Under the pieces are notes generated by a model. It was not told where the DNA came from. It did not search any database and saw only the letters and a program-made list of their open reading frames with translations. DNA of 63,057 nucleotides, filler included, from Sluysia triapertura (Eukaryota): assembly GCA_046118255.1 (NCBI GenBank). It is 4 parts of 4 records of this genome, joined end to end, with 100 filler letters (N's around TTAATTAATTAA, not from the genome) between each part and the next. Parts side by side here need not be neighbours in the genome. Positions count along the whole stretch, not along the records: positions 35,347 to 51,829 come from JBJNIA010203041.1; 3 more parts are not named here. The stretch is one strand, 5' to 3'. Position 1 is the first letter of the stretch; every line of letters starts with the position of its first letter. A program made the translations under genes and the position numbers. Positions 73-63,057 of this stretch are shown here, one piece after another.

Positions 73-2006
73 CATAGAAATAAATATTTATTATTTATTC
101 TAAATTTATATTAATTTGATTGTTGTTGTTATCAATAGTATTGTGGTAAAAATAGTCTTTCTTTTAGCCTTCACTGTGTTTTTTGAAATCAGAGAGAAAG
201 TGATTTCTACGATATTGAATGCCATTGCATAACAATCGAATATTTAAAATATTTTAAATTTTAATACATTGTCCATTAAAAAATACATGTTTTACAGTAC
301 ACAACAATATTATTATTTTAATTATTATTATTGTCATACTACTATTTATTTTAATTTTTAAAAATTATCATCACCTTCACAGCTATTCTTATTTTCGTTT
401 AGTTATTATGAATTTTAAGTTAAATTACAACTTTAAGTTAAATGACATGTTCATGAACAATTTAAAATCGAGAAAAAAAATACTATTCGAGAGCGCTATA
501 ATATTGCTGAGGGACATCTTAAATATCGCACATTTAAACTCCTAAGCTCGCCGATTAACAATGTCTCAAAGTACTTACTCGATCTATGTTGTCTTATTTT
601 CAATATCAAATTTTGAAATCTCAGCAAATCATGGATAAGAATTATATTGATGTCATTAATTGGAATGTCGTAGTATGAGGTTTCAATCAATTCTTATGAT
701 TAAATCTTGAGACGCATCGTCCTATAATCAATTTACTCAGTTGTATAACTCATACTTACTTTGAGATCGAACATCACTGCGAGTTGTGTTACACCTATTC
801 TTTTTGTCTTAATAAACAATGTTACACAAACACCGCCGCCGATATTGTAATTGGTGTCAACTATTACTTGATCACATGCAAGGTCTCTTAATCCATTATA
901 GATCCCATTTTAACTTGTGAAAATCACTCCCACGTGATTTATTCCGTTCAAATTCATCTTTTTTCATAATAGCATTAACCAGAAACTCGCTGAACACAAT
1001 CTATCTAATGAGGTGAAGGTTTGAAAGACGTAATCGATTATTCAGGAACACTCATGACACCATTTATGATAAGTTAAAATACGTTGGGTTCTATGAGTCG
1101 ATTGTTTATGTGATGTGGTTTATAATGTACAGTAGTGTTTAATACCGAATGAAGAGGATATAAATAAATCATAAATGTGAGAACGTTTAAGAAGCCGCGA
1201 TGCTGTCAGTCGCAAAAGCAAGTGGAAAAATTTGACATTTGTTCAATATTAAAAAATATGAAATATGAAGAACTTTGGTTTTAATGTCTGTAGACGTTTT
1301 GATGCAGATATAAGTTTCGATTCCTTGTCGAAAAAAGATAATACTCAAAATGAATAAATATGAACTTGCTGTAATTTATAAAATATTCTTTTAAATTACA
1401 TTATAAGATTGAAAATTTAAATTAAAATCCAAATTTACAACTTTACTAATATTTACTAATTTCCTCGGTCCTTTATGTCCCCAAAAAAATTCGAATAACG
1501 CATCAAATACGTTTTGATAAAATACGAACAATCAGACGGATATTCTATTTCCCATTCATTCAAATAGTAATTATTTAACATTGTAACAAAATGTAACTCT
1601 GTTGAAATTGTAAAATTAAAACATTAAAAAAGTGTTAAAAACAGTATGTTATGTAATCACATAATATTATGCTTCTATATGAAAAATTAGTATTACGCTT
1701 ACAATTATTATAATTATGATTATAATTAGATAGTAATGGGATGGCATTAGGCCTAAGGTTATGATGCACGATACAATAATTTTGAGTAAGAAACAATATC
1801 CACGAAGTAAAACTGAAAAAAGCAGATGACAACTTTCCATGTACAATATCAAAGTACGATGAGGTGTAAATAAAGAAAAGTGTACTATTGATCCATCGTA
1901 GAATATAACATAATGGAAGTCTGTCATGAACTATTTACCTTGAAAAAATAATCAAGATTAATATCAGTTTTTGGCTAAGGTCCAAAGATAAAAATAAAAA
2001 ACAAAC

Positions 2007-14201: not shown

Positions 14202-14773
14202 AGGGCTTGTTTAATTTTCGTATAAAAAGCATAATACGTAAATGTATATCATAAGTGAACTTTGATTCATTATTGATATCTAATCTTGTCTTTATAACTT
14301 TAACCGTGTTTGATCTCAAACGTAAGAAAAGCTCTCCGTTACCCTTTAGATAGAACTGCCAAAATGTTTGAGTTTTAAATATAAGGTATAAAAATCAAGA
14401 TAAATGATAGATATTATAAAACAAAAAGATGTACTTACATAGAGATGCATATACATACATACGGTAAAACAACAATGATAATGTCAGCAATAATTCTAAT
14501 AATAATATTAAATAATCATGGCCTTCCTGTTTTATATTTAAGTGTTGGAAATCTTCGTCTCATTGGTTTGTTAAGTGACTAGGCAAACCTAATTCTCAAC
14601 TAAATGATCATTTTCGTCGTTTTTGTAGCTCTCCTAAGAACCATATTTTGAGTGGCACTACAATTCTATCGAGTGTCTCCTTGTTTTGTTGATGTTTCAT
14701 TGCAACAATCAGATTTTACACTGAAATTTACGTTAAGTAAACTAGACATTGCTGAACTCATACTTACCATTAA

Positions 14774-15307
14774 CCCTTTCAGCCCCGGGACCCCCATATG
14801 GCGTCAATGGCGATTTTTTCTCTTACACAACCGCTATGCAAGATCATACGAAGAGCATAATTTTAGCTTCCTCCAGATATAAAGATTACTTTCCTTCTTA
14901 CATTCCTGGGCCATCTAACAATAGGAGAACTAGAAGGCGTTGCGTAGTTTGTTCATCGCACCAGCAACGGACAGATTCAATGTATATGTGTATTGAATGC
15001 GATGCGCCACTATGTGTTCCAGACTGCTTTCGGCAATATCACACTGTTTTACACTACTAAAGTCATTTATTATCATGTACCGCATTATTTACTTGGATTT
15101 TCTTTCATATTTTTATTTTGTCAAATTTTTACTAACTTTTTAAAACTTTTCCGTAACTTTTCAATAGATATTTATGTTTGAACTTTGACCTACATATATT
15201 TTTACTTCAAGTCAATATTTACAATTTCATACATTTTTCCTAAATCATCATCTATAATGACAATAAATCACCATATATCTTAAGGAAAAAATTCGGGGCT
15301 GAAAGGG
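14774..15307 (+). mobile_element. Non-autonomous piggyBac (534 bp) retaining the C-terminal Cys-rich domain coding region
   Basis: TTAA TSDs; perfect 14-bp TIR CCCTTTCAGCCCCG; RRRCVVC...YMCIECDAPLCVPDCFRQYH. Confidence 0.95.
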
Positions 15308-19128: not shown

Positions 19129-19189
19129 CCATCATCAGTATTGACAATACTCATTATTGTAAATACATTTATGTCAATACTGATGATGG
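19129..19189. other. Perfect 18-bp stem hairpin in cassette A
   Basis: CCATCATCAGTATTGACA-25 nt-TGTCAATACTGATGATGG. Confidence 0.9.
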
Positions 19190-19375
19190 CTCTTCGCTCA
19201 TTCATCTGTATTTTTATGCTACACAAAATTTTGTCTTACCGGATTTCTAATGGCCGGTAATTTCAACGGACAAATTATAAATAAAGCATACAATAATCAC
19301 AACCTAATACTTACAAAAATAGAATACCCTTAAAATTACAAAAAAAGAAAAGAGTATGATAATGACAAATTTCAA

Positions 19376-20158
19376 ATGTCCAAGTCAACGCCAAGAAATT
19401 TCGTAATACCTAAACCAATAGTTAGTCCTAAAATTCCAGATCATTGTTATAAATCTCCAGATCATTGTTATAAATCTCTAGATCATTGTTATAAAACTCT
19501 AGATCATCGTTAGGAAGGCATATATAAATTTGATAAAGATTATCTTATTTCTAATTCAGTGTTGGTACGAAACTGTTGGTAATTAGCAGATGCCTATCCG
19601 GAACCATTTGATCATCAGTACCACGATTTAGGTCTCATCAGATCACTTCGACAAACAGTTTGCAGACAAAACTTAAGAAACCTGAAATGCAATTTATGAA
19701 ACAACTTCATTTCTGGACAATTTGTAATGCCATCATTAATAAAGTCTAATTTACATAAATACGTGATGTATTGTAGAATTCTACGACATAAAGATGAATC
19801 TTTTAAAGAAAAAACTCGATCTTGGAACCATTCTTGTCATATGTATAGATCGGCTACTCAAAGAAATAAAAATTATTACCAAATCGATAAATTAATATTA
19901 CCACTAAAACACTATGTATTACAAGAGACGGCAAACATCATGATCACATATCATTCTGGAAAACAAAAAGTTGATAAACCTACTAGTACGACAATGATCC
20001 ATTCCTTGGCGAAGTATATCAACATAATCATTTTATTTGTTTATCGTTACAATTTTTTAACTGTTGTTTTTATTTTAGAGATTAAACTAAAGACTGGGAT
20101 CAACGAAGTGTATAGAGATATGATCAAAGAAAGCAAAACTTTGTGTAATAATAATTAA
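19376..20158 (+). pseudogene. Cassette A cargo ORF, unknown protein, disrupted 5' part
   Basis: MSKSTPRNFVIPKPIVSPKIPDHCYKSPDHCYKSLDHCYK (21-bp repeat x4, ~19436-19510), followed by stops and then ORF 19727-20158. Candidate GT-AG intron 20014-20078; AATAAA near 20157. Confidence 0.5.
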
Positions 20159-29051: not shown

Positions 29052-32000
29052 TTCTTTAATTTATTACTGCATTTTCTTTACACATTACTAAAAGATCTAG
29101 GATACTAAATGCATAAGATTTGATACGTCATGTGATAAATGTAGTAATTGTAATATGTTGGAGAGTTATGATCTAGACATGACTGAGTAGCAGTTACTGA
29201 ATCGAGTTGGATTTTACGACGATTCGAAGAAAACAAATGTTTAAACGGTTATATTTGTAAGGTTGTTTACATAGTTAGATACAAAAATGTATTTACAAAT
29301 TTATGTTTGCATTTCTACCCAAAGCAGGTGTCCATTAGAGAAAAATGTTAACGATTCAAACAGCGTATGACTATGAACAGAGAAGAACTTACAACTGTCA
29401 TTGATTTTACAATTTGAGACGCTTTGATTGTAGTCATTGTGTTGCTAAAGTGAATCATTGTCTTGACATAATTGTGAAATCGATGTTGATGACCACAAAA
29501 TTTATTTATATGAATATAAAGCTTTAATGTGTAATTGACATTACAAACCATCATGCAATGTAGTTTGTGAAGTTGGTCCCTTTATCGGTCTGTCATATTG
29601 CACAAGCGGTATTTGGTAAAATTATTTGATATTATTGTTTAACACAGTATGATAATAATAATGATAATTATCATTATAATAATAATAATTTTAATAGTAG
29701 AACAATAATAGTTTTAAATTAGAATATTTGAAACAAAAGATATTAATTTTGAAGTGTTAATAATGATGACGACGATGAAGTTAATTGTAGTAATAATAAC
29801 AATATGTAAAAAATATAATAATAAATATAATAGCTGAATGATAATGATAAAAATAAATAGAATAATGATAATGCCAAAGATAGAAATGAAAACATTATTA
29901 ACGACACTAATGTATTTTAAACATCTATCTAATAAAAAATCTTTGATTTTCAGAAATTGAATTACTGATTTTAGTTTAATAATAATAGTAATATAATAAT
30001 AATAAGAATGATAATACTGAATTAAAAAATTACTTAGGGTACTTTAAAATAAAACTAATTTAAATGTAAATATTTATAAAATCGATAGAAATGCATGAAA
30101 TAAAACTAAAACTAATATATTAAAATATTATTGTAAAAGAAAATACTAATATTAATTTAGAAATACTAAGCATTAAAAATTCTATTTAAAAAATACAATT
30201 ATATTGTACAAAACATTAAGTATTAAAATCTATCGTAAAAGTTTTATTATTCTGTCATTATTTTATTATTAAACAATTTCTGTAAAACCAACGATGATAT
30301 AATTTTATTGCATTGTAAAAATTATTATTTGTAAATTAAATAATTGTATTATAGACTAACAACAACTTTATTGTATTATAATAATTATTATAATAATAAT
30401 AAAATCGCATGAGAAAAAGTACAAATAGACAGTGCAATTAATAAGGAATATAATTAATCTCGAAACATGAATTCTGAAGAAGCGAACAATTAGTTTTAAT
30501 TTTTGTAAATTTTAAATTTTATTTTGTTTTAATTGCAAAATCAATTAAAATCTCTTATGTTTATAGTTTTCAAGAGACTAGAATTTAATTCTAGCAGATA
30601 AAATTCTATTTTTTGATTCCATATAAAGGAATCCTACGAAAAATATATAATTAAATTGATTTATTTAATTTTGCGATTCCAATTAAAATCTTTTAAAGAA
30701 TATTCACCTCCAGATAAAAAGGTACTCCAGAGACTTACTTGTCTTTAAATTTATCTTATAAAAATCCAACGGCTGGCCCCAGCAGGTAAGTCCAGTACGT
30801 TGGTGGGCTCACAGTTTTGACTTATTTTATTCTGTTAGCTTCACACACATATCTCACAGAAGGATAAGTTTATCTCTTTCGGTGAAAACCCAACAAAGCT
30901 CAGATTTTTCAACTAAATATTTTAATTTCGCGAAAGGATCATAGATACGTCACAAAAACTCTGCAAAATTATTGTGAAATTGATAAAAGCTTATAAAATT
31001 TGAGAACAAAGCTCGAGTAATAAATAAAGTCATTTTTAAATGAATAAATATAACAGGTTGAGAATTACGAATATTCCTATATTGACTGTTAAACATTGTT
31101 GTTCATGGATAGTTAAGGTTAATTAAAGGACTTATGGCCAAATAATGAATAAAATTTTATGTTAAAATGATGGAATAGATGTGGTATTTACATCCCAATA
31201 ATTATTATAATTAATGACACTATATGTTATTTTATAATTTTTTAATGTTTATTTTTACTGTTATTATTCTTACAGTTTTATTACTATTATTGTAATTAAT
31301 AATATAATTATTAATATTGACAAATAATTAATTAATAATTACGAGGATAAAATAATTAACGTGCTATACCAACTAAATATACTAAATTATTATTGTTTGT
31401 TCATATATTTTCGTGTCATTTTAATTATTTATAATCGAATTTTGATTTTTAAACAGATCTTAATGAATAAAGTATTTTATTTAATGAATAAATTTGTTAT
31501 AATAAACTGAAACATTGAATAATTTTAAATGCAAAAGTTGGCATTTCCATTTTTGCTATAAGGAACTGTTTACGAACTAACCTTGACGACGTAGACATTA
31601 ATTATAAACTAATTTAATTGCCGAGATAAAGTCACTCATTTATAATAGTGTTAGTTATAAAGCGAACTGTAAACTTATCACTGATTGCGAGTTAGAAGAA
31701 AAGTAATACATACAATTATATTATTATATCTATTATTCAAATTTAGCTGGATTTATACAGATAATAATGATTCGTCGTCGTATGATGGTGTGTTTGGGTC
31801 ATACACTGCCGGTGGTAATGTACAAACATTAACTAGGAGTAAAGATACATCCAGTGCAATATTGAATGATTTGAAAAGCAAACTATGGATTCGGAAAGGA
31901 ACTCGAGTTATATTTGTAGATTTTACTGTTTACAATGTCAATATAAATATGTTTTCTGTTATTAAGTAAGTGTTTCATCGACATGTAGTTAATTCAATAT

Positions 32001-34987
32001 CGATTGTTTAGTACATGTATTTCATAAACGCAATCAAAATTATAACTGCTTTAACTTGGAACGAAAATAATAATAATGTTAGACTTCATTAAATGAAGTC
32101 TGACCTGGATTCGAACCAGGGCCCTCTTACCTCACAGCTGTGAAGTTCGATGCTCGAACCATTAAGCTATCATCCCGTCTAACAATTTTAGATTATTGTA
32201 GTCAATTATACTATCCTTATTTTAAATGGCAATAATAATAATAATGAATAATGATTATAATAGTAATAATAATAATAATAGTAATAATATTTATCAATAA
32301 TAATTATTTTATAAATCATTATTTTGACCTTGTTGCTCAAATAGATCATTTTACTTGGCATGTACATGTATGGCTACTAAATCAGTGTTTTCAATTTCAT
32401 AAACAATAACAAATAAACAAAAATTTTATATTAATTAATTAGTAATATTTTATAAGAAATATAAATTGCATTATTTGTGTGTTTTATTTTAGACTTGTTT
32501 TTGAATTACCACCAACTGGTGGCGTCTTTAAATTTTCTGAAATTAAAACTGTCAAATTATTTCGCTATGTCAGTCCATTCGATTATTTCGTTATGGCTTG
32601 TGAAATTATTTATCTTTTATTTATTGTCTATTATATAATCGAAGAAATTATTGAGGTTATTTTTTAATTTTTTACTATAAACAAATTTTATCAAACAACC
32701 ATTTTATTATGGCACTTCTATTTATGTTATTGAAGTATTTTAAAACTTTAAAATTATTTTATTAGTTTCGATACTACTAATATTAAATTAGTAACGAAAG
32801 ACTATGACAATAATTTGAGAAAAACGATTGAAAACTTTAATAAAATAATTTAATGTAACTGGAACTTAGAACGACAATACATATAAATGCTTTTGGAAAG
32901 CAAGTTAACACAAAAAAATAAAATAGTAGGATGTGGGAAATACGAAATATTAATAGGATAGAAATGAAAAACAAATGCAAAATTCACGTAAATAAATAAA
33001 TTATATGATCAGAATTAAAATATATATAATATATAATTGATTTATTTAAACAAAAAATTAAGAATTATCTTAATAATATATATGTTCTGCAATTAGGGTC
33101 TTTAACAAATGATCAAAAAATTTTAATAACTTATCGTATGTCTTTTAATAATTAAATAGGCACCAAAATATTAACTTTATTTACGAAATATAAAAAATTT
33201 TATAGTAATAACAAAAACAGAGATCAGTAATAAAAGTTTTTTTAAGGATTAAAGTTCGAAGAGCGTTTAATCTAATAACTATAATAAATGGAGTACATAT
33301 TATCGGGTACTTAATAATTATAAATAATTAAAAATTTAAGTTGATTTTATAATGTTGAAATTGAACTTAAAAATATATAAATTACCAATAAATGGAATGA
33401 TTTTGAATAGTTGTTGTTCTGTGGATATTTCCCAAATATTTCTAAAGTTATACCAAATATTACTAAAATTCCAACAATGACGCTGCAAAATTGTACTAAA
33501 GGAGAATTCCAAATTGCGACTAATTTAAAATTTCAAAATGGAGATGCTAGTTTATATACTAGCCAATAGGAATCGAAAGAACATTCTAGAAGCTTCTATT
33601 CTATTTTTAGAGGCTAATTTTCTTTTTTTGAAAAATGATTTCTTTTTTTGGAAATAAATATTTTAAAGTAATTTTAAAGGTTTTAAAAGATTTTTAAAAC
33701 ATTTTAGATAATTTAAAATAATAGATACATTCAAAACAAATCTTGAATATGTAAATATTAATATTTACTTTATAATACCTAAATATCTACGAATATTTAT
33801 GTTATAATTGAAAAAATTGATAAAAACGTAAAACAAATAATCTTAATAAATCTTACAGTTATTCGGTCATATAATTTATTTTCATTCGTCTTATATTAGT
33901 TTGCATTTAGTGTTTTTATATTATTTCTGTTTTATTATCATTCTACAGAATTCCTATTTGATCCGCAACAATTTCCATCTATATTTCCCACATTATGCAC
34001 TTTTCTTTTCCTATGTTAACTTGGTTTTCAAAGGAATGTTTTATTGTTTACTAGAATATTTGGGAAACATTAAAGACCTTAAAGTTCAAGTCTTAAAGTT
34101 TAAGAATGCTTTAACTTGCTCCAATCCCCGTTAATTATATATCAAAATGTGGAACACATAATATTAAATAATTTTGTAAAATAAAAATCATTCAAAATTA
34201 AAACTAATAAATCTAATTTTCAAGTTTAAGTGTTAATTTAAATTTAGCACAACAGAAAAATTCCCTTTATTATTTATTAAATTTAAAAAGTGCAATTATC
34301 AGAACTTTGATAAGTTTTTCATTAGTGTCCTCGTTTTTATCCATGAGTAATTATACATACAGAAAGACTTTATGATGAACTTCAAACTTTCGAAAGAATT
34401 TTTTTGTAATAAAAGAATAAACATAATAAAATGCTAATTAAAAAAATTATTTCTTAGCGCAGATACAACTTTCATTTTATCGTGGTTTGAGTTGAATATA
34501 TCCTAACAAATAGATTGCCATTATAGCCTTTGACACAATTATGGCAAAAGTTTATTATCATGGCGACCCTAATACATGGAATTATGTATTTTAATATCTA
34601 CATAAAAATATTACAAATACCTTATAAAATCAAATAAAATTTTTGCACACTTTTAGGAAAATTTAAAAAAATCAATAAGATAAAATTATTGTGCGTAAAT
34701 TAAAGTACATTTTCATTTCATTTCTCATTTTTATTTTATATATTGTTTAGATTAAGAAACACCGATGGTCATATTTTAAAGAATTCTGGAATATATTGGA
34801 TTTATTTGTTATTTTAATAAGTATAATTTGTGCGATATTCAACATTTATCGAGTTATATATATCGATAATACTTTTCGTACTGTTTTAGAAAATACTGAA
34901 GTTTTCGTAGATTTTTATTTCATTAGTTATTGGCAACGAATTTTCAATGAAGCTATTTCTATTACTGTTTTTCTTGTAATGGTCAAG
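25423..34987 (+). CDS. PKD2: Polycystin-2 (PKD2/PKD2L, TRPP channel), 5' part; truncated by contig end
   Basis: Phase-compatible exons 25423-25699, 25745-25858, 26922-27031, 27259-27506, 31747-31965, 32493-32655, 34751-34987. Motifs AWATR...KTTFREMFTY, FIYFENQLISVPQIRQLRVKNGTC, LWIRKGTRVIFVDFTVYNVNINMF, LVFELPPTGG, FVMACEI and FWNILD match polycystin-2. Confidence 0.93.
28998..29051. repeat. (ATT)n microsatellite
   Basis: Perfect run. Confidence 0.95.
29340..29640 (-). mobile_element. Decayed retroviral-type integrase core (Gypsy/Ginger-like) in PKD2 intron
   Basis: QTDKGTNFT, RFHNYVKTMI and SVHSHTLF in shifting frames resemble SDNGT(N/Q)F / ERFH.TLK.ML / SVHS.TGF. Confidence 0.5.
32077..32195 (-). 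mobile_element. tRNA-derived SINE-like element
   Basis: A box TAGCTTAATGG and B box GGTTCGAATCC; flanks shared with the 41176-41284 copy; AAT tail. Confidence 0.7.
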
Positions 34988-35346: not shown

Positions 35347-35804
35347 AATCTTTATATCTAATTACTCCGGAATTTATCGGAATTAAATTAATTACAAATC
35401 CTGTTTCAATAGGATTTTCTGCAAAATTATAAATAATCAAGAATATTTTGACAATCTTCATTAATTTCATAAATATTTACATTTATTTCGGAATTTAACG
35501 AAATTTGTAAAACACATTGTTTACAATCCCTTTTTTTAAAGGAATATTTCGTAAAATTTAACTGATAGAAATACAATAAAGTGGTTTAATTAAAGAGATA
35601 CATATATACTTATTAAATTGAAACATTCATTCAGTGTGTATTATTAGGATTACGATTTGACCTCCTACAGTTGCTTAGTTTTAAAATCCAACAGCTAACT
35701 GGTAAGTCTAGATACGTTGATGAACTCACATCCATATACTTTTATTCGTGAGCATCTAAGTTAGGTTTTATACTTTCCAAAGTATCTCATAATAAGTTCT
35801 AGAC

Positions 35805-41175: not shown

Positions 41176-41284
41176 AATCTAAAAATTGTTAGACGGTGCT
41201 GATAGCTCAGTGGTAGAGCATTAAAATGCGTAACTATAGGTCACGGGTTCGATTCCCAATCAGTCCATTTTATGAAGTCTAACA
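41176..41284 (+). mobile_element. tRNA-derived SINE-like element / tRNA pseudogene (core 41195-41266)
   Basis: A box TAGCTCAGTGG and B box GGTTCGATTCC; the anticodon arm pairs poorly; flanked by TGTTAGAC...GTCTAACA and AAT repeats. Confidence 0.7.
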
Positions 41285-42821
41285 ATAATAAAAAATAAAT
41301 AATGCATTTAAATTGAAAAAAAAACAAATTTGTAAGAAAAAATTATCAAAATTAGTGATGTAATGCCAATTGATATATAGTATTATTAGTTACTCGTAGT
41401 TTTTATTATTTTTTCATTGACAAAATGATTGATTTATAAATGATAAATGTTTCTGTTTAATTTATTTGGCAACTGTTGTAAAATGCATTAACACTATATT
41501 TGTTGTCAATATTAAAGAATTTAGGAATGGAATTTTTTGTAATATCCTATTAAAAAAGATAAAATAAGTGATTTGAATATATAATTTATTTTGAAAAAAT
41601 TCTGCAGAATTTTAATTAAATTTAGTAATGTGAATTGTGTCAAACATTTAACAGTAATGTAAAGTGATATTAACATTAACTATTAGTATTACATTATTTA
41701 CATAAATTAACTAAATATTTATTAGTTGATATAAGTTCTGTCATTAATTAATATAAAATTAAATTCTAAATTTAACATTATTTCATTTTTAATTTTAAAT
41801 AAAACTTAAATTTTATAAATTTAATTTCTATTTAGATGTTTTATTTTGAGTTAATATAAGTTATTGATTACTTATGCAGTTAATTAATAAAGCAAAAAGA
41901 TCAAATTTAGAAATACAAAAATCCGAATTTAACTAAAAATACAATATTAAAACAAAGCCTCATTTTTGTGAAATAATTAAATATAATTAATTATAATTTA
42001 AAAAACATAATTAAATGTGTAATCAACTAATTTGATCACTTGCTCGGCTACTCTTGAAAAACTGTTATTGCATCGAAACATTTTGTGGTGGCCAACCCAA
42101 TATTTAAGAATTTTATTTTTATCAAGGCACAATAAAATTATCTTTCACAATGTTCACAATTATTTTTATCAGCAAACATTTTAAATATAAAATTTTACAA
42201 CAGCAAATTTTATTCGACATTCAAAATCATCAATCATACTCTCAAAAATCAAATTAACACATTTTAAAATTAATTCAACATACTGCACATTCTATAATAT
42301 TTTACCCATCTTTCTATCAAAACCTTTTTCATATTTTATGCCCTCAGATCCACTAGAACTATTCTCATTTAATACATTTTAAGTTACAGTTTTGACACCT
42401 TCAAATAAATTCATATATTCATGACCTGTCATCATTCAATCCCTAACATCTGAGAAAGATAATATTACCTAAAATCATCAAAAAATAAATCATACTAAAA
42501 GTTATCTTTTTTACATTCACTAAACCACACTCTCTCAATGTATCTTTAGGTCACAATCTCCCAATATTCAAACATTATCTTTAGTCACAAACATCAATTA
42601 GCATCTAAAAGTTCATTGTAAACATTCTACACACTATCATACAGCATTGTAACCTTAATCACACCTTAAAACATCAGACACGCATTTAGAACTAATTCAA
42701 ATCAACTTTCATTTAAAATTTTTTTTCTAAATAAATTCAAATATGTCTATAATTATTAAAAATGTAAAAGCAATATTCTGTAAATATTAAGATTTCAAAT
42801 AATTTAAGGACGTTATGTATT

Positions 42822-42901
<80 letters not shown>

Positions 42902-43563
42902 CGGCAACACTGTTGTTGTTATTATTATTGTTATCATATTTAATTTTCTTTAATTTTTAATATGTTGAGAAAGTAAGAAATTAACAGAAAAATCATGTAA
43001 TAATTAGGATGGATCTTTAAAGGATTTATGTATTTTAGGATAGTAATAATAATAATAACATTCTTGTTATTATTATTATCACCATTTTTAATTGTTATCA
43101 TTTTTAATTCAAGTTAATTTTATTGTGAGATTTATTAATTTAGTAACTACCACTACCAGTGGTGACTGCATTAATTTACAATGACAGTCAATGTCACCAA
43201 TGATAGTGGTTTGCATATCAACCAATTTGTTTTGGCAATTGTTACCGGTTGTCCAACCAGAGTGATTTTCATCATGATTTTTATATACATCTGGTTGGAC
43301 AGTCAATCAGATTGTTCATTTATATGAAATTTTGTGTTTCTAGCATAATAGCCTAATATTCTAATTTATTTGTGAACTAAAAACAAAGTCAGACACGCAG
43401 ATAAGGATTTCATTGTTGGTGCACACAAAAATTAATGTAATAACTAAAAATAGACAAAGAAATTAAAAAAAATTACCAATTTTATAAAAAAAATTAGTAG
43501 AAATAACAAGTTTATTGATAATTAAAAATTTTATCAACAGTTATATTTTGTAATTTGATAATT

Positions 43564-43784
43564 ATGATTTCTAAAACATTAACGTTAAAATTCATCTTAT
43601 AAAAGCATATTGGAGTTCGTTAGACATCTATTATGAATTCTTACGTAAATAATTTGTCTGTTAAAAATATTGGACCTAATGATCGACTTATAGTTCTCCA
43701 AATTTGGAACACAACAGGCCTAAATGATTGCATTCTAACTTACGTTATTTGAAGTGAAGATACATTTTACAATTTGGCACATTC
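43564..43784 (+). pseudogene. Rab7-like small GTPase 5' fragment (degenerate) inside cassette B
   Basis: MISKTLTLKFIL*KHIGVR*TSIMNSYVNN..LSVKNIGPNDRLIVLQIWNTTG aligns in register with Rab7 [31 protein letters not shown]...[22 protein letters not shown]. The switch-I segment is deleted and there are three in-frame stops. Confidence 0.75.
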
Positions 43785-43813
43785 GTACGTTAATTTTCTA
43801 ATTTTTTAGTTAG

Positions 43814-44648
43814 AAACAAAATTGATTTCAATTCACAAGCATTGTCGGAATATAAAGTAATGAAGTATTACAATGGTCATTATGATGTACATTATGTTAA
43901 AGTTATTACTAAAGGCGGAGTTTGCGCTAATGAAGTTTTTGAATACACTGTCAATATGGCATTGAAATTAAGACAACTATTAGACAAGTCAATTAGAGAA
44001 CTACATTTCAAATCAGATACGTCAATGTTAACCAACTTAGACTCAAATAATGTTGTTTTCGATCTCTTCAAAGTTCTTAATGTCAAATACCTATCAATGT
44101 TATATGTGGAACCTACTATATATAGAGTTGATGACGATGATTCTTCTCAAGCTACGCAAACACAGTATGCAGAACTAACTAACGTCAAGGCACATATTAG
44201 TAGTAACGTCACTGGATATTTAACGCCAAAGGGTGCAAATGAAATTCAAGAAAATATCAAACTCCTTACTGGCAGTTCATATCATATTGAATTTAAAGAT
44301 GTTTTACAATCAAGGAAAACCACAATTACTATGAAATTATCAAATTCTAACCAAGTAATCAAAAATGCTATCTACCTATTCGACAGCAATCAAGATGGAG
44401 TTTGTGTTAAGTATGGTATGCTCATGCAGTGAACCAGTTAGCACTTTCAAATACCGAATTCCTACAACGCCTGGATCATTTTTCCAGGATTACAAACATC
44501 TTAAATAGCCTCAGAGTTTCAAATCTAAATGAGATCAATAACAATTTGTGTATCCATGAACCTAAAGTAATTATTTCTTATCCATTTTATAATGACATTA
44601 ATTTTTGTGATTTTTATTTAGATGTCGAAACAGTTGGATCGAGAGTAA
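43814..44648 (+). pseudogene. Cassette B cargo ORF, unknown protein (one apparent frameshift near 44420)
   Basis: ORFs 43842-44432 and 44429 onward; candidate introns 43785-43813 and 44567-44621; short last exon and AATAAA. Confidence 0.55.
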
Positions 44649-45289
44649 GCACATCCGGGATTAAAATAATTAACGTTCAATGTAATTTTAATAAATTTTT
44701 ATGTAGTTATAGTTCATTTATAAATTATTTTATATTCCGAAAAGCACAATACAATAAAGAATTAAGAAACAAGAATTTATATAAGATTTCAATTTACTTT
44801 TTTAAACTCAATCTAAAATCATATAAAAGTGTCTTAACACATTTATTTTTGGATAATTTTTTAAATAGTACATAGATATATCTGCCGGTGGAGGGCTGGT
44901 ATAGCTCTAACATATCGTTTTCTAATGGTTTAGCGCAAATACAAGTTTAAAATCAGATTGGTTAAATGTTGTGCATTGAGATTTAGTATAGGTTTTCGTT
45001 AGAGTGAGAGTAAATTAAATGTGGATATCTTGTTTTTACTTTATTTTCTTTGTAGACGGAACTTAGGCTTTATTTATTTTAAGCAATCAAAATATTTTAT
45101 TTGTTAGTTAATCAGAAAAAAATAGTTGTTTGTCACCGCAGATAACCGTAACTTAATCTGCGACCAATCATACTTAGGCAATTTTTACATGAATGTGATA
45201 TATAATATTATCAGTTACATGCATAAGGATTACATCTATGAAGATTCTGTGGTTATCGCGCATTACATACAATAATATTTAGTAAAAAT

Positions 45290-46242
45290 AATACATTAAT
45301 ACAGTCTAGTAACGACGCCGATTACACTGTTTAAGACTTGTATTATACTGATGAAGGATTCGCTTAATGAAGGTAACCTAAGATCATAAATAGAAGTTAA
45401 AGTAATGAGTTCGCCTGTGATTCAAGACTTACAGAATGGTTTGTGATAGCCGGGTGCTATTATAATATCGAGCGAAAACATAATTATTAATTCGGAAACA
45501 TCTTTATTATAAAAGGAATTACTAGATCTGGGCTTAAGGCCCTCTTCAAATTTTAAAATCACATTATAAAGATCAATTTTATGAAAAGTGGACTTAAGGT
45601 CCTTTTCGTTGTTAAAATTAAACAGAGTGATATTACGGAAATTCGGCTTAATGCCTTTAATACTATGAGAATATTGCAATTTAAATGAATGACATAAAAC
45701 AAAATAAAATTTAGACATATATTCAAAATAAAACCTTACCACACCACACGTTTTTAAATGTAAGATGTACTGGAGGTCTTTAGGATAAATGATGCTAAAA
45801 CAAACAAAAATTCGAGTGACGAAATCTGATAATAATATAAACAAATTAAAGAAAACATAACCGCATCTTTCATAACGAAATAAGCAGTGAATCTTTGAAT
45901 GGGATAATTTAAGCAAAACTTTTGATAATGTCAGGCATACTTGCACCAGGTAATCCTAAACTAAACGGCCTTTTGTTAATACAGTTACGAGCCACTTGAG
46001 GATTTTCTCTCGTTTATTTTTTGCAAATACATTAGATAAGTCTTTGAAATGTCTTGAAATTCAAAATCCTCCTCATGATCCATTTTAAATTTACGATACA
46101 GCTTTAGACTTGTGACAATCGCCTTAAACATCTTTATAACGTGAACTTTTAAATTTATAGCAATCATTTTTAAACTTGTAGCGTCTTTCTTCAAATTCTC
46201 AAACATCTTTATAACATGAACTTTTAAATTTATAGCAATCAT
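45290..46242 (-). pseudogene. Orphan, disrupted, probably spliced ORF of unknown function
   Basis: ORFs 45985-46242 and 45422-45946; a 42-bp segment is duplicated at 75-bp spacing (46126, 46201). Confidence 0.35.
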
Positions 46243-46456
46243 CTTTGAATTTGTTCAAAATATTTTATTATTAAAACAATGAAAAACAAAACCCCTTTTT
46301 AATAATCAAATAAAAATTGTTTGGCTACAACACACAACCAATGAACATTAAAATCTAAAAATAGTTCATTTTAATAAGCACAACCTTGATACATAAATAC
46401 TTTTATTATAGTTTTATCTACTTGTAAATAATGAATAGTTTATTAATGGATAATAT

Positions 46457-49047
46457 TTATAAATTAGATTTTAAAATCTGTTCCTTATCCGGTGAACAAT
46501 TGGTCGGTAAAAAAACTGTTTCTTCTAAACTCTGATTTTGATTGGTTAATTCTTTGGCATTGTCTGCCCAATCCTTTGCAGTTTTATTTAGCTTTACACT
46601 TCCACTTGAACGTGTGGAATTTTGTATTGATTCTTTTTTATGTTGTCGTTTCTTGGTTGAAGATTGAGAGAAACTGTTCTGAGAGTCGATTGAGGTCGAG
46701 GTATATCTGAATAGTATATAGGAACCCTTACCATGGTTATAATTTTTATTATTTTATTGTTATTATTATATCATTACTATTATCATTTTATTTTATTGTT
46801 ATTATCATGTTTATTATTATTATTATTACTATTATTATTATTATTCGTCAATTTCGCTTTAGAACAAAAGAATATTTTTAAAAATATTTGGAATTTGGAA
46901 TTTTCTTTTATTGTTAACATTGTATGCAATAAAAATAATTTTTGTTCAAAAATTATCTACTGAAAAATATAAACAGAAAATAGTCAACCTCTTAAATGAC
47001 ATCCGCTTAGCCAGTATTTTTGATACCACCTCCTCCTGTGGTCCGACGTTCTCATCTTCTTGTTCTTCAATGTCTTTACCCTCGTCATCGGAATTCAGTG
47101 ATTGATGTAGTGGAAAGTTCACTATGCAACGAAATATATCTTTGTCCTTGGACAGCTTCTCATTTTTGAACAGCCAGTATGTTAAATACGACACGAATAG
47201 AATGACTAGGAGTGACATGACCATGCAGAACGTCTTCAGAGGGAAGAGTGAGTCACCTTCTTTCTATAGGAAATATAAACTAGATGTATATATACACTGC
47301 GACTAACCGTAAATAATGGCAGTATGGGTGGTAAAGATAACGAGCTTTCGCCTATCATCAGTCGCAATACGAAGCCCACCAGATAGCCCGAGAGAGATCC
47401 ATATGTATTACTCCATTCCACGTGCACCACGCATATTAATTGTGGAAATATAATGACGTAGACCATGTCGGAACACAAGAACCACAATGAGTAAATCGAT
47501 TCTATTTGAATTGCCAAGTAGCAAGCGAGAGCGCCAACCAGGAACACGCTAATCCTCATGGTCCAGATTATCTGCAATCATACAATGAAATAATGGCTCA
47601 TTATTATTGTCGATGGTTCAAATAGGACAGACAGATCATGTTTCATTGTAAAATAAACTTTACTTAAAATCTTACTGAATTTTAATAATTGTTAAAATCC
47701 AATTAAATCTATCTTAATTCTTTCATTACAATTCTAAAATAAATAAAATCAAAAGCTACAACTTTAATTATATTCAATATAAAGTAATTGCAATAATAGG
47801 GAAATAAAAACAAATAATTCCAATCAATTTTTCCAAATTATCTATTCTTACTATTATAAATCTAATATTCAAAACTACATTCACCTAACCGTAATTCAAA
47901 TAAAATAAGAAAAATAAACAAAATAATAATGAAAATAAAATGAAAACCAGGACTGATGTAACACAAAATCTAAATAAAAATTCCGTAATTTGAATTTATT
48001 ATAATTTAAATAATTTATTTATAACATTAAAAAAATAATAATAATGATTATTAAGATGAACCGTTCAACCAGTTGCGCGTTAGTGAACGTCATTCGTCAG
48101 TGTCCCTGATTGGAGACCTTTTACCTGCACTACTCCAATATGATTTTAGTAATTTATCCACCACCTCCAAAATTTCATTTGGGATCATTCATCCCTGTTT
48201 TTGTGCTACACACTGATACGACTTGAAATAGGAATCAACTGACTACAACTAAATTCTAAAGTGCATATGCAACGGATATGAGAATATTTGCAACCGTTTT
48301 CTAAGATCAAAGCAAGACTAAAACACTAAAATAACAAATTAGTCCTGCTCTTTAATTGTGAATTGTTCATAGATCTAAGTTCCTCGAGATTCAAATGTAA
48401 AGTCTTGCCAATTTGGAAGATATTCCAAAAGAAGGCTTGAAGATAGCAGATTATATAGCAAGATAGAGACAAACTTGAGGTTGCGGTATGAAAGGTATCC
48501 TAACTTTGATGTTACATTATTTAAAGTCGAGATTCTGACATTCCTTATGAAATAGAAGATAAATATGCTGATTCCTTCAAATGAAACAAAAGAACCAATC
48601 ACAGATGATTTATTACAAGTTGTCGATGAATTGATGTTATCGTCGCATTTCTTAATTCCTAGAACATACTGTTGCACAAAGTAAGCCCTTCTTCCGAATA
48701 TCTCGAATAATTCATCTTTATCAGGATATGAAATGAACAGCACAGAAATTATTTTAAATTTTAACTTTTGAAATAAAGATATATTTGTAACAATTAAATT
48801 TGCGTTACCATGTTATCAGATGCTTTCTGCCAAACAATGGATTTGAAGACATTTCTGGCGAACATAGAAGCAGCTGATAAAATTGAAGAATCGGCAGATG
48901 ACATTACCGCAGCCGACACAGCCCCAAGGCCGATGACACCCACAAATTCTGGACAGAGATATCGAAGAACTAGAGGTAGTATTTTGCGGCGCTCACTGTC
49001 CGGTATGGTGCCGTTTACAAGACCCGAGTAATTTGTGAAACTCCAAT
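46457..49047 (-). CDS. SLC5A7: High-affinity choline transporter SLC5A7/CHT1-like, 3' exons
   Basis: Exons 49047-48809, 47571-47308, 47263-46989, 46706-46457, in phase and ending in TAA. ILPLVLRYLCP...GLGAVSAAVMSSADSSILSAASMFARNV, LWFLCSDMVYVIIFPQL, SNTYGS and FPLKTFCM match CHT1. Confidence 0.92.
48050..48740 (+). mobile_element. Possible decayed hAT transposase in SLC5A7 intron
   Basis: Coding-like composition with many stops; weak hAT-like motifs (R*SERHSS..., YPNFDVTLFKVEI). Confidence 0.35.
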
Positions 49048-49519: not shown

Positions 49520-50375
49520 TTTGTACGAATTCCATCAAGGAATATATGTTACAGAAGTTGTAAATATTTAGTAAAAGTGTTTGGTGAAAGTACAGTTTCT
49601 GATAGGACATGCAGGAGATGATTCGAAAAATTTTTAAAAGGTGATTTCGATCTTACTGATAAACCACACTTTGAGTGGACATATTTGATCGATTACAATT
49701 TTATTAAAGTCACATTAGATCAAGATCCTTTTCTGACAATATCGACGATTGCGGAAAGGCTTAATTCAGCTCAGCAAACCATTTCGGACCACATTCGAGA
49801 GGGGTGCCGCATGAGTTAAATGAAAAACATTTGAATGATTGAGTCATCTCACATGTACATCTGGGAACAAAGTCAAACTGGGGATCAGAAAACATCGCAC
49901 GAAAAATGGGACAACCTGACCCCTACACCGATCTTGAGCTTTGGGATATTCGAGAACTAATGAATTAAGATCTTTTGAAACCGAATAAAAAAACCAATTT
50001 CGAGAGGTAATGACAACAATTAGATGATTTAAACAAAGCACTCACAGAAAAGAGGCCGGAACTATTCAATAGGAAGGAAATCATACTAAATCATGATAGT
50101 ACCAGGCCTCATACTGCTTTGGGGACTCGTCAGAAACTCGCAGAACTAGGCTGGAAAATTCTACCCAGACCTATCACCCTTCGATTACCGCTTGTTACAA
50201 CATTTTTTGAAAGCAAATGAATTCAGAAATGAACCAGGCCATTTTACAAACTGCCATTTCTCTGTCAATGTGTCGTAACTAATAAGGGAAACTATATTCT
50301 GCAATAAATATTATTAAAGGTATGAAAAATTTATTATTTTGTTGATTCGATAAGCGTACAGAACCTTCAGGTATA
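49520..50375 (+). mobile_element. Decayed mariner transposase
   Basis: SDRTCRR*FEKF..GDFDLTDKP, VPHELNEKH, NHDSTRPHTA..TRQKLAELGWKIL and PDL...DY motifs. Confidence 0.9.
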
Positions 50376-54850: not shown

Positions 54851-57749
54851 TAAACTGAAATAATTCATAAATTCAATTGATTTAAATAACTTTAAAGGAA
54901 AAAATTTTTTCATAAAATTAAATTTATAATTAGATTTGTTATAATTATAATTAGATTGAAGATAATAAAAGTCCTTAATAAATATAATATAAACATAATA
55001 TTATATTATGCATGATGTAAATCATATCACGTGAATTACGTAAATAAAACCATTAAGTTATAAAATTTTTATGTAACAAATTAAAACCATTTTATAAATA
55101 AATAACTGCAAATTACTCAACTTTTAATAAAATATAGTTATTGATTGCGGTATTTGTAATTTATTTTGCATTACATTTTTCGTGAATTGACCATTTCAGA
55201 GATTTGAAAATGTAAATAACATATTAACACATTGAGAGATGACGTTAATTCACGTTATTTGGAATTTTAATTTATATAATTTCAACAAAATATATAATTT
55301 CAAGCTCTGTGCCTCAATATGTTAATAGTGCATTACAAATTTTCAATTAAATTTTAAATTTTCATTTTTTGAAGTATCATATTTACATTGAATTTTCAAA
55401 TTTTACTATGCATTGTTTTAAAAATAATTTACTGCTAGATAGAATTGCTATTTATTCCAGTAATACTTACTAAAGTGGATAAATCATACTTTCAACCTTG
55501 ACGTTTACATGAACTTGGTAACTTTTAAAATATAAAAATAGTTGAGATACAGTTTGGATTATATATACAAGTATATAGACCATCAATAATGATAACTTTT
55601 ATTAATGGGTTTAATGTGAACCTGGAAAAAGCAAATGTGAGCTTAACAACTTGATAAAAATGTTAATTTCGTTAAGTTACACTTGATTTAATAAAATTAA
55701 TAAGTCGATTGAAGGTAGTATTCTAAAAAAAGAAATTATGAAAGTATTGATACAAAAAATAAGCTGAAACATTTTAAATTAACAATTTATTTTGTGCTAA
55801 CCATATTAATCAATGTAACTTATTATTTTTTACAAAACACTCCATAAATTGCAATTTATCAATTTTAATTTCTCTCACGTTATGCCTTCTAGGTTGTTAA
55901 GTTGTCATGATATACGAAAACGAAGTAGTCCAAATGGAATTACTGAATATAATTAGTCATTTTGTGTTACTGCTACTGTTATGAAACTTGAGAGCTTTTA
56001 TTTCCTTCTACAGCTATTTTTCCTTTACTCACTGAGACATTGTTATATGCATCATTGGTAAGTTTCTTAATCATTCTAACATTCTTAAAACTATTCAATC
56101 TTTCTGAATAAATTTGAAACACTTCTTCATAATTTCTTCTATAACTTAATATCTTTTGTTATTTCGGTGGAATATAGATAGTTTTATATTGATTTTATTG
56201 AATAAAAATATCAATTGAATTATGATGTTTACTATAACGAAATATTTTACAAAAAAATTTGCATTTTGTCTAGTTTTTGTTGCTTCGATTACTTTCTATG
56301 ATTTTCGCAGTTAAATCTTTAACAAACTATAAGCAAAAATTAAAAATAACACAATCTAAGCCATAAAAAATAATAAAGTACATTCGATCATTAATTTACA
56401 AAACTATAAATTTAAGCTGCAATTTTATTCACATTACAGATCATTGATAATTAGAGAGACATCGAAAAATTAACATAAAGTTCAACGAAATGATCAAATG
56501 TTATTGTGGTGGCCAACTTCTAACTTAAAATTCAAAATAATCATTCTAATTACATTATTACATTCATTAACATTTTACATTTTTACCTTTTCAAAATTTA
56601 TCAAAACCTTTTCTAGATTTTACATTTTTTAGATCCATTAAAACTATTCTCATTTCAAAACACTTTAAATTCACAATCTTTTAACATCAAAACTATAATT
56701 ACAGTCAAACCATTAATGTACATTTCAAATTTCATTAAAACATTTTTAACTCACAATTTCACAACATTAGAATCACACTTTACATCTCAAAGTACCAAAC
56801 ATAAATTTCAAAGTTAATTCAAAACATTTCAAATTCAAAATCTTTCAACATTTACAACATTTATTTCTTAAAAAACTTTAAAATTTCATTTTAATATCAA
56901 CTTTAAAACATCGCATTTAAAATGAAAATTCTTTAACTTCCTGAACTATATTCATTCATCAATTCCTCTAACATCTTTAACTACATTGATACCTTTTATT
57001 AATTCAATAATATTACAGAAAATGTGTTCAAGAATTTTTGTTTTATTTTATTTATTTTATTATTATTAATTTTATCTTATTATCACTATTAATTCTTATT
57101 ATAATTATTATTACTATTTTACTTCATTATTTATTTTATATAATCATTATTATTATGTTTATCACTATTAAACGTTGTTACTAGCCATTGTAACCTGTCA
57201 TAAGTTGACAGATTTTAATTTAATTTCATGACGATAATTTTATAACTGTCAACTGATGACAGCTGCCTGGTTTGTTTACATTTTTATCAAAATGCATGTC
57301 GATTGGTAATGTTTAGCCAACAAATAAGAGTTGTGTACAATTGATTCGCACACTGTCTCTGTTGATGCTGCATTGTTTATAGTATTTGATTTGGCACCCA
57401 ATCACTGATTTATAATCCAATTTTGATTTATAAGTTGGTTTATTACAAGCAAAAAAACTAGAGTAAACGAGCACTATTCATAATTAAAATTAAAGAGATA
57501 AAAATTCAGCTTTTTAAAAATTTAATGCTTACTTTACTAAATCAATGAAAAATTATTATAATTCAGTTATAGATAATGATAATAATAATTTAAAAGTAAC
57601 TGAAATTCAAAACCGATGGTTTTATCATTTTCAAGTAAAAATCGTATTCAGATTGTAATACGTACTTAGTAATTGATATTGATTATAACACTGTTACGTA
57701 TTCTCATTATTAAACATAAAATGTTATCAATGTTCAGAATATCAATGAA

Positions 57750-58336
57750 GAATTTTACATATCAAGAAAATAATACCCTTTGATGTTAATACTTGCGGAT
57801 TAATAGACAAGCAAGATACACGAAAGTTAGTAAAGTTTATTCATTGTAAACCTCAATTAATAAAGATCTTCGATAATATTCCTTTAGTATTTGCATTATC
57901 TGCTGCACACCATTGTTTTGAAGAACAAAAAAGAATATTCTATACGACATTATATGAAAAATGTTATCCAAAGTACACCAAATATTTAAATTATTCATTG
58001 GCTCTCAATGCACATCCGTTTGTTATAAACGATTACACGAAATCAGCTCAACCATCTGTATTTCCTTTTCCTTTGTCAGATAGATCAACTATGCATTGGA
58101 TTTTTGATTCTTTAAATTGGTGTTACCTTTTTTACATTGATGAAATAAATGAATCTTTGATCGAATTTCGAGTTGTTTACGAAGACATGATTAAGCTATT
58201 TGAACAAATCAAATTATTCTATTTTAAAGAAATGAATAAGCAAAAAACAATAAAGTTTTCGTTAACTATTACCAAACTACAATTTAGCAAATCAATAGAC
58301 AACTATATCATGTTCAAGACTTTCCTTATTATTTAA
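57750..58336 (+). pseudogene. Cassette C cargo ORF1, unknown
   Basis: Stop-free frame of ~195 codons (RILHIKKIIPFDVNTCG...FKTFLII*). Confidence 0.5.
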
Positions 58337-58564: not shown

Positions 58565-59150
58565 ATGGTAAAAAATGAAATTGAAAGAAGCTCCTGAATC
58601 AGAAAATGCTAATGCTCATCTACTAAAGGAGTTGGAGATCCCACACTGTCTCTTACATCATCTATGATGACTCAAAGAGGTTTTCAAAAAGTTACACAGT
58701 GGCTAAATATTGTTTATGATCCTAAGACAAATGTTCAAAGTCGATCTATTCCCATGCCAATTTTCAAAGCGATTTCCACCAATCAGTTACTTGCAGCACA
58801 ATGCCCCTACGGAGTGGATTCCTCCAATATTTGTATAAAGTATGGATTATGCTGTCCACATTATCACAACGTATTCGAAATCAACACTAATCAAGAACAA
58901 GCGATCGAACATAAAACAAGATTATACGATTTATTAGGATCAACAAAATATGGAAATTACCAATACCACCGACAGTTCAACAATAATCAACTAAAAGGCT
59001 ACTACCAAAGTAATGATATTATTTACAAAGTAATTTACATTTGCTTAACTATGTATAAATTATTGTTTATATAATAATTAGTTTATTTCGCAGGAATCTA
59101 CGACCAGAATAGTTGAAACGGCATCCGACTGCAGACACAGCAAAGTGTAA
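58565..59150 (+). pseudogene. Cassette C cargo ORF2, similar to cassette B cargo
   Basis: ORF from 58664; intron 59030-59093 (GTAATT...CGCAG) gives last exon ESTTRIVETASDCRHSKV*; two stops lie between the ATG at 58565 and 58664. Confidence 0.55.
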
Positions 59151-60637: not shown

Positions 60638-62309
60638 ATGGGTTTACGTTATGCTAAAAATACTATTGAATCAAAACCAGAATTTCGGAGAAAACGGTCA
60701 CTAGCTATTGAAAATGAACCTAATGCGTAAAAATAGATTTACTTTTAATTATATTTAGCAAACGCTGCCGTTCTACTTTCAATTATTTATATAATCATCT
60801 ATTTCTTAAAGGAGAAAATAGTGACATATGTATCAAGGCTTTCGACAAAAAATGGAATTTGCATAAAGTTTATATTCGACAAGTAAGCAGTTTAGAAAAT
60901 TTATATTTATAGTCGCCATATTTTGCTTCAATGTTTTCTGATTCTTGGATTGAAGCAAATTATTCTGAAGTTTCATTGGAGTTTACTGATTCTAATATAA
61001 ACGCGGAATCATTAAATATTGTTTTAGGAAGTTTTTATAATAACGACATCACATTGGATGAAGAAGGTATATTATCAATTTTAGCAACTAGTTTATGGTT
61101 CCAGTTAACGGATTTAACAGAACAATGTGAGGAATTTATTTTACGTAATCTTCGGTTAGGTTTCGTATTTTTTTAATATTGCTTAGTCTTGAGAATTTTG
61201 TATATTTTTATAATATTGCTGAAATCTATGAAATTTTACATTTGAGCAATAAAATTGTAGCATGGATTAGTCGCTGTATTATGATTGCAAAAGATTGTGA
61301 TAGTTTTTATGAGATTCTAAAATCAATTAAGTATATAAATTATTTTTTTTATTTTTTGTTTGTAGACCAAAGTTAATGTTGAAAATTGTACAATGTCATG
61401 AATTATTTGTTATACATGTTGAAGAAGATGTCTTGTTTTTAATTCTAAAGGTATGTTTCATTTAAAATGTAAATAAATTAATTATTCACTTTAATTTTAT
61501 ATAGTGGCTATATTTACAAAAGATATCTTACCCGAAAAAGTATAATGAAGAAATAAATTCAGGAATAAGAAATTTTTTTAAATATTCTGGTTTGTTTATT
61601 TATTAAAAGAATTATACTTTTAAGATATTAAAATTAATCAGTTTACTGAACCAGAAATCATCGAAGAAATATTTAAAGAAATAAAATGGCCTTATGTAAT
61701 ATCAACATTTTGTTCAGCATCTTCTGTTCTACAATTTTCAATTATTCCAAAACGTAATAAATATTTATTAAAATAATTAATGATTAAGATTCAAAATTTG
61801 TTTTTTGTCTTTTACGGAAGTAAAATTATTTCAGATAAATAATTTTAACGTAAAGTTTAACAATAATAGATCTACTATCTCATTATGTAGCAAGGTTAAT
61901 GTAATTTCGTTATTTTTTTCGAGATGTTTTAGATATTAGATTTACAGTGTCGAAATTTGGCTTTCTTTCTTAAAGTTTTTTTCTAGAGAACAACACTGAA
62001 ACGATTATTATTAATGTTTTTGTTGAAATAGTTTGTAACGTAATTTTCCATAGTAAATCTTGTTGCAAATATTTGTCAATTAATAAGAATTCTCCGTTTA
62101 ACTAATAATTTATTATTATTATTATATATAAATTCATTAATGAAATATAATATATTAATTTTGTATTTTCAAAGAGCCTTGTACGAAGATAATATTTTCA
62201 AATTCAGTGAATAAAAAAGGGTATACGTTTTCTTAAGCTTAATTACAAGAAGTATTTAATCTGATTAGATTCTTTATATTTTCATACCTTCTTCAATGTT
62301 ATTAGATAA
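60638..62309 (+). CDS. GMCL1: Germ cell-less (GMCL1)-like BTB/BACK protein
   Basis: MG start; STFNYLYNHLFLKGENSDICIKAFDKKWNLHKVYIRQSPYFASMFSDSWIE and LFVIHVEEDV...LKWLYLQ. Introns 60727-60758, 60883-60912, 61155-61186, 61331-61365, 61451-61504, 61590-61624 and more; the 3' exon boundaries are less certain. Confidence 0.88.
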
Positions 62310-62936: not shown

Positions 62937-63057
62937 TGTAGTGGTCAACTTAATAACTCAAAATCAAAACAAACCGTAATAAAAAAACAACCTTCTCAAC
63001 AGCCATACTCCTTAATTCATAATCACAACACCACACATCTCATAAAACAATAATTCA
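62937..63057. mobile_element. Cassette D terminus (truncated by contig end)
   Basis: TGTAGTGGTCAAC followed by G-poor, C/A-rich sequence like the leaders of A-C. Confidence 0.65.

Follow-up and report, generated by a model that had tools for sequence, protein, structure and literature searches.

A probable chimeric-gene copy derived from Rab7 in a multicopy cassette of Sluysia triapertura

A reading frame starting at position 43564 of a 63,057-nucleotide stretch of Sluysia triapertura DNA (assembly GCA_046118255.1; this whole stretch, filler included, is called the window) resembles the small GTPase Rab7 and lies just upstream of a long open reading frame. This raises the questions of how a Rab7-like sequence came to lie in a repeated cassette, how the two frames are related, and whether they ever encoded a protein. 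The original prediction was that the cassette had captured a Rab7 exon and joined it, through a 29-nt intron, to an unrelated orphan ORF, the product possibly being a trafficking decoy.

The cassettes and their copies

With a base composition of about 25% GC, the window is AT-rich animal DNA in which exons of host genes encoding a BRCT protein, a polycystin channel, a sodium:solute transporter and a BTB protein are present. Short host introns are about 30 nt long (candidates of 30-35 nt in the BTB gene, for example 60883-60912), and multi-kb introns coexist in the genome with these candidates. A 13-nt motif, which likely forms the left end of the cassette, has exact copies at 18186, 42084 and 56505 and a further copy at 62937 that differs at two sites; all four lie on the plus strand. 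At no more than 3 mismatches it has 11 matches in the window, against 3.05 expected. Each of the exact copies is followed by a C/A-rich block, an AT-rich stretch, a hairpin and unrelated open frames. The Rab7-derived segment is part of the second cassette (motif at 42084), which has the following features:

42084..42096, plus strand: 13-nt motif, likely cassette left end
42097..42760, plus strand: C/A-rich non-coding block common to the cassettes (62% mean column identity in a three-way alignment; GC skew -0.56)
42823..42899, unstranded: (AAT)n microsatellite
43149..43210 and 43250-43261/43290-43301, unstranded: two hairpins, the second a perfect 12-bp pair (from folding z and pair search)
43564..43803, plus strand: N-terminal part of the Rab7 segment, from beta1 to alpha3, interrupted by stops at 43600, 43621 and 43750 and by gaps, both in frame, at the two switches
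43785..43813, plus strand: proposed 29-nt intron; end of alpha3 and start of beta5 in the Rab7 coding sequence
43806..43967, plus strand: Rab7-derived C-terminal part (beta5, G4, alpha4, beta6, degenerate G5, alpha5), stop-free
43968..44432, plus strand: tail of 154 aa that continues the open frame; no known family by Pfam, PDB and whole-ORF searches
45422..46753, minus strand: second cargo, multicopy, with orphan open frames of 177, 89 and 98 codons
46737..46845, unstranded: (TTA)n microsatellite close to where multicopy cover ends on the right; beyond it lies a single-copy host transporter exon

Hairpins are found at the equivalent place in three cassettes (19129-19189, z -5.7; 43149-43210, z -2.7; 57195-57262, z -4.8). 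Their sequence differs and the fold is kept; a possible role is that of terminator or origin. For the second cargo, family searches found no family for the 177-codon frame or for the whole stretch. The cargo of the first cassette (19334-20158, plus strand) is a broken frame; its 21-nt tandem repeat is similar to a repeat within the minus-strand cargo of the second cassette (46163-46252; tblastx E 0.009). A further high-cover C/A-rich remnant with a 145-codon orphan frame (48375-48812, minus strand) lies at 47620-48812, between transporter exons, and contig joints connect it to the left block of the second cassette. Elsewhere in the window, the sole Rfam matches are weak tRNA-like ones at 41196-41267 (plus strand) and 32096-32176 (minus strand), possibly SINE heads or pseudogenes, and ordinary transposon remnants encode a Spin-doc zinc finger (4001-4228), a DDE-type zinc finger (14746-15057) and a helix-turn-helix (49622-50217) which we take to be mariner-like.

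Copy abundance was assessed from the contigs of one sequencing run (X1), possibly the window's own source. Contig depth, which is not copy number, reached 1,000-5,000 across much of the left block; for the Rab part it was 185-396 and for the tail 240-550, compared with 16 for a neighbouring host exon. Over 43542-43800 one contig matches the window at 91% identity, 22 contigs differ from the window copy at 43851, and up to 61 differ at one site in the left block. Clearly, the Rab segment is not a one-off insertion but part of a multicopy cassette. An independent later insertion of this segment with its own target-site duplication, the event that would have undone the original prediction, is thus contradicted by the cover over the Rab part; 43900-44900 contains no A run of at least 6, and flanking direct repeats are only 8-9 nt long and AT-rich, although age could have erased such traces.

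Judged from weak profile matches, the third cassette likely carries another captured, far-diverged host regulator. An open frame of 195 codons (57749-58336, plus strand) matches both Ski/Sno domains in order (E 0.003 and 0.001; PDB Ski E 0.93), which suggests repeated capture. Further along, an open 153-codon frame (58613-59074, plus strand) has a weak match to an Unkempt-type CCCH finger (E 0.011) and no PDB hit.

Rab7 ancestry of both halves and the three gaps

The single frame from the ATG reads as originally described, in a copy with stops at codons 13, 20 and 63, and its match to Rab proteins, the lack of which would have refuted the prediction, is significant. A PDB search with 43564-43803 (X at stops) returned Rab7a first (E 2.9e-5) and Rab9 next (E 0.0013), hhalign against the Rab7 alignment gave a probability of 97.3 and an E of 2.4e-11, and none of 2000 shuffles reached the N-terminal Rab7 profile score. 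The Ras-family HMM proposed as a check was less sensitive than the Rab7-specific profiles: Pfam Ras gave no hit in one search and E 0.14 in another, probably because of the long gaps in the fragment. A match from the first Met through G3 had been proposed. The match itself stands; the start Met is placed by the position of the ATG only, with alignments beginning at residue 4, and the true extent is larger, continuing through beta4 and alpha3 to 43803, inside the proposed intron, and resuming at 43806 through alpha5. The predicted deletion of switch I is likewise present but incomplete as a description, since switch II and the alpha3-beta5 loop are also absent. In the P-loop G1 (GxxxxGKS/T) neither glycine is kept and a stop stands at the lysine codon, in G3 (DxxG) asparagine stands in place of aspartate, and the G2 threonine is lost with switch I.

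For the downstream half, 119 loci with a Rab7 motif were fetched, and a Rab7 profile was built from the 26 of them that have an uninterrupted frame with G1, G4 and G5. The first 64 codons of the supposed orphan ORF match profile positions 121-176 with 15.3 bits, a score reached by none of 2000 shuffles (shuffle maximum 6.5). When 7656 pieces of the window were scored, the four best all lay at 43537-43970, and the best piece outside reached 11.9 bits, against 15.7 for the C-terminal match; this second Rab-like piece, at 30051-30290, was dropped as it contains no motif residues. By hhalign the C-terminal part gives E 3e-4 but a probability of only 40, it is 18-22% identical to intact Rab7, and on its own it has no match in PDB or Pfam. 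Its G4 motif (NKxD) is intact at 43815-43826, and of G5 the lysine alone is kept. Modest as the C-terminal match is, its order and position are correct: it follows the N-terminal part directly and opens with the intact G4. The C-terminal part was compared with Rab7 only and so does not separate Rab subfamilies.

Taken over its full length, the similarity spans the whole G domain (profile positions 5-176), and profile comparison places both halves as descendants of Rab7. The Rab segment is about 32% identical (42/131) to the closest fetched intact Rab7, whereas pairs of intact Rab7 proteins are at least 51% identical (median 70%, 120 pairs); a word-based search with the Rab part gave no candidate. 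An open frame does follow the Rab-like start, as had been noted, with a length not of 196 aa but of 212 codons from stop to stop, or 190 from the ATG at 43860, and at its start it is no orphan. As this start, of about 55 codons, corresponds to Rab7 beta5 to alpha5, the fusion to new sequence lies inside the ORF, at about 43967. Shuffling of an exon onto an unrelated ORF at the 29-nt stretch does not agree with these data, in which both flanks of the stretch are Rab7 and the 29 nt themselves score as Rab7 coding sequence. The broader idea, host-gene capture by a repeated cassette giving a chimera of Rab and new sequence, is supported by the end motif, the multicopy depth and the Rab7 profile matches.

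The 154-aa tail stands where the hypervariable and prenylation tail of Rab7 would be. Alone it gave no Pfam hit (best PDB E 1.8), and searches with the whole ORF, among them viral contigs and PHROGs (prokaryotic viruses only), found no relative; one match to a bacterial Ig-repeat protein was set aside as chance. No two-cysteine prenylation motif is present, there being no cysteine among the last eight residues of the frame. Structure prediction for the ORF from its single sequence was too poor to use (pLDDT 31.7).

Aligned with intact Rab7, the frame shows three gaps, which follow residues 30, 65 and 108 and measure 13, 14 and about 12 aa. In 25 pairwise alignments the first gap was 13-14 aa in 23 and split 4+10 in the other two, the second was 14 aa in all 25, and the third was a single 12-aa gap in 21. 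When mapped on a structure model of an intact fetched Rab7 (pLDDT 78.9), the gaps fall in the alpha1-beta2 stretch, the alpha2 region and the alpha3-beta5 loop, which we take to be switch I, switch II and part of RabSF3, respectively. On this model they cost 2 strand and 2 core-helix residues, and only 0.07% of 93,664 random placements do as well (P ~7e-4), while strands alone are spared by 11% of random placements. As the core was defined after the gaps had been seen, this test is suggestive and not proof that regulatory surfaces were removed and the core strands and helices spared. In the Rab7 loci that were fetched, introns are concentrated around codons 18, 60 and 132, occur a few times near 30, and show no clear match to the edges of the three gaps in a sample that cannot show introns at 62-75.

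According to parts of PMC2693434, the switch, interswitch and RabSF regions of Rab proteins make the contacts to regulators and effectors, and a two-cysteine motif provides membrane attachment. Both switches, the alpha3-beta5 loop and the two-cysteine motif are absent here. With effector surfaces and lipid anchor missing, the decoy role in trafficking that was originally considered appears unlikely from the sequence.

Stops, open frame and the 29-nt stretch

On balance, the multicopy cassette probably holds here a chimeric gene in broken form, a whole but switch-less Rab7 G domain joined to the 154-aa tail. Its product likely evolved as a folded protein that does not switch, and three stops and a frame change arose in this copy afterwards. 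Neutral decay was simulated down to 32-50% identity, and this gave 5.4-7.5 stops per 135 codons and a P of no more than 2e-4 for 205 open codons. Mismatches in the Rab segment are more conservative than simulated ones (mean BLOSUM -0.14 to -0.21 versus -0.57 to -0.72), most clearly in the C-terminal part; this signal is inflated towards selection since the simulation started from foreign Rab7 proteins and not from the host gene. The three stops alone do not reject neutral decay (P 0.05-0.24), and stops are denser in the N-terminal part (3/74 codons) than in the downstream frame (0/205; P 0.018).

These numbers also bear on an alternative which we consider unlikely, namely that a long-dead processed Rab7 pseudogene is carried passively and that only the frame from the ATG at 43860 was kept open, the N-terminal part being an untranslated leader. 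All three stops do lie in the N-terminal part, where G1 and G3 are also damaged and the mismatches are borderline neutral (mean BLOSUM -0.32), and the downstream frame has an ATG of its own. Among the listed differences of this copy from its siblings in the ORF, 7 of 8 are non-synonymous (402 further sites lie outside this listing), as expected for a copy decaying since insertion. No intact sibling was seen in a listing of sites that did not take in the N-terminal part, and the stops may be family-wide. However, G4 is intact upstream of the ATG at 43860 while the other C-terminal residues are only about 20% identical, suggesting translation from upstream, and the core is spared by all three gaps, two of which are long and in frame.

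The boundaries of the proposed intron are real insofar as GT stands at 43785 and AG at 43812-13 and removal of the 29 nt joins the frames. Its origin as an intron is not upheld, the stretch being Rab7 coding sequence by descent: against the Rab7 columns it beats 99.7% of 20,000 shuffles that retain the GT and AG ends (P 0.003). A change of frame within the T run 43802-43807, where the third gap lies, therefore seems the better reading. Read in this way (X at breaks), the sequence forms one domain over profile positions 5-176 with 32.1 bits, while with the 29 nt removed it forms two domains with 30.0 bits.

Secondary intronisation is also improbable, at much the same level as the dead pseudogene. 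By this route the 29 nt, once coding, would have turned into an intron that compensates for the third deletion, which is out of frame, and splicing would give a Rab-tail protein without beta5. In its favour are the GT-AG ends with a near-consensus donor, a T-rich acceptor, a host-like size, the in-frame join and a score merely 2.1 bits below that of the frame-change reading; a precedent in which an indel and intronisation together keep the frame is described for human retrogenes in PMC3565874. These retrogenes share with our locus a GT-AG intron-like stretch from coding sequence beside an indel, but splicing here is putative and the less likely reading. Opposed to it, besides the persisting score as Rab7 coding sequence, is a nearer and stronger AG at 43808-09 that would yield an immediate stop. 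Furthermore, three GT-AG pairs span the frame change, and chance would allow for the one among them that is in frame. A sibling contig of depth 18.8 is without 43792-43831, and has neither of the acceptors nor G4, and a core strand would be lost on splicing. In a scan of splice strength the passing site was at 35634, so that the scan has no bearing on 43785 (background 5/98 donor-like sites).

Class of the cassette and meaning of the proposed capture

The cassette appears to work like a capture-prone transposon. No inverted end motif with fewer than 3 mismatches was found outside the motif's own palindrome, and self-comparisons gave no long inverted pair, so terminal inverted repeats were not detected by either route. 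Near-identical direct terminal repeats of the LTR type are absent as well, the shared blocks being only about 60-70% alike and located in different cassettes. Neither a right end nor a target-site duplication was found, candidates for the latter being at chance level; this also holds for a TG...CA end at 46849 that has a duplication of 4 nt. The frames scanned contained no transposase.

Parts of PMC4224331 and PMC4778049 describe bat Helibat Helitrons that carry captured genes or retrogenes, and the bypass of the hairpin is a known route of Helitron capture (available text of PMC4778049). The cassette resembles Helitrons in its one conserved end, its hairpins and its variable captured host sequence. 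Helitrons leave no target-site duplication, and here the candidates are at chance level. The hairpins lie about 1.1 kb inside the single conserved end, cover is lower beyond them and the cargo varies, a combination that would fit read-through capture as in Helitrons. In the available text of PMC4224331 Helitrons are defined by a TC start and a hairpin-CTRR end, whereas the shared cassette end, with its exact boundary as we infer it, starts with TG in 4/4 copies. No stem-loop with CTRR was found in the second cassette (one site in the whole window, at 57184 on the minus strand), and no RepHel was seen. The cargo also looks reshaped at the protein level and is not a near-identical fragment.

It is improbable that the cassettes are instead a dispersed, fast-evolving host gene family with a common upstream region, or the cargo of an endogenous large DNA virus: the lack of transposase, inverted ends, long terminal repeats and target-site duplication in our searches and the long cargo frames, far diverged from host sources, would agree with this, but unrelated cargo (Rab7-like, Ski-like, orphan) stands behind one common left end, cover of the shared part is far deeper than that of the cargo, and there is no relative in viral contigs or PHROGs (prokaryotic viruses only).

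For the outcome, the closest precedent is Ssk-FB4, a Pack-TIR element of Drosophila, in which, as parts of PMC8277862 describe, a transposon-borne multicopy copy of a host gene gave rise to a fast-evolving distinct protein family that lost its old partners. Both cases involve a multicopy host-gene copy on an element that is a transposon there and likely mobile here; the present cassette differs in being without terminal inverted repeats, far older, more diverged and chimeric with a new tail, and in being known from sequence alone. A literature search (titles and abstract openings; few subscription papers) found no transposon with this end motif and no transposon-borne Rab7 derivative. With Rab7a itself, of the RAB7/Ypt7 subfamily, the locus shares the top PDB match, the span over the whole G domain and the kept G4, and differs from it by the degenerate G1 and G3, the deletion of G2, both switches and the alpha3-beta5 loop, and the replacement of the hypervariable and prenylation tail by 154 new residues.

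The history we favour, that of a captured and remodelled gene, starts from what is observed: both halves descend from Rab7, three gaps interrupt the match, the frame is open from G4 into the tail, this copy is broken and its cover is multicopy. A likely mobile cassette would have picked up an intron-free Rab7 copy. Among routes of capture, Helitron-like read-through past the cassette hairpins into flanking DNA would be the most likely, a suggestion we make tentatively. Selection on the protein would then have released the regulatory surfaces and retained strands and helices, and the intact form would neither cycle nor bind Rab7 effectors nor be prenylated, and might serve as a scaffold for the tail.

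Animal transposons are known to capture genes, and captured pieces usually stay near the host gene sequence or decay. Here, a highly conserved eukaryotic protein appears to have been trimmed at exactly three regulatory surfaces and given a new tail within a repeat. A bolder proposal, which we hold to be rather doubtful, is that a family of one-ended mobile cassettes captures host regulators (Rab7, Ski/Sno, perhaps Unkempt) and remodels them, with intact siblings that encode a switch-less Rab7 fold of about 135 residues plus a new domain and are expressed and selected. If no intact sibling exists, the locus would be a well-documented fossil of capture and remodelling. If intact siblings do exist, they would offer a natural test of whether the small-GTPase fold survives without its switches, and of how mobile elements make new proteins from host regulators.
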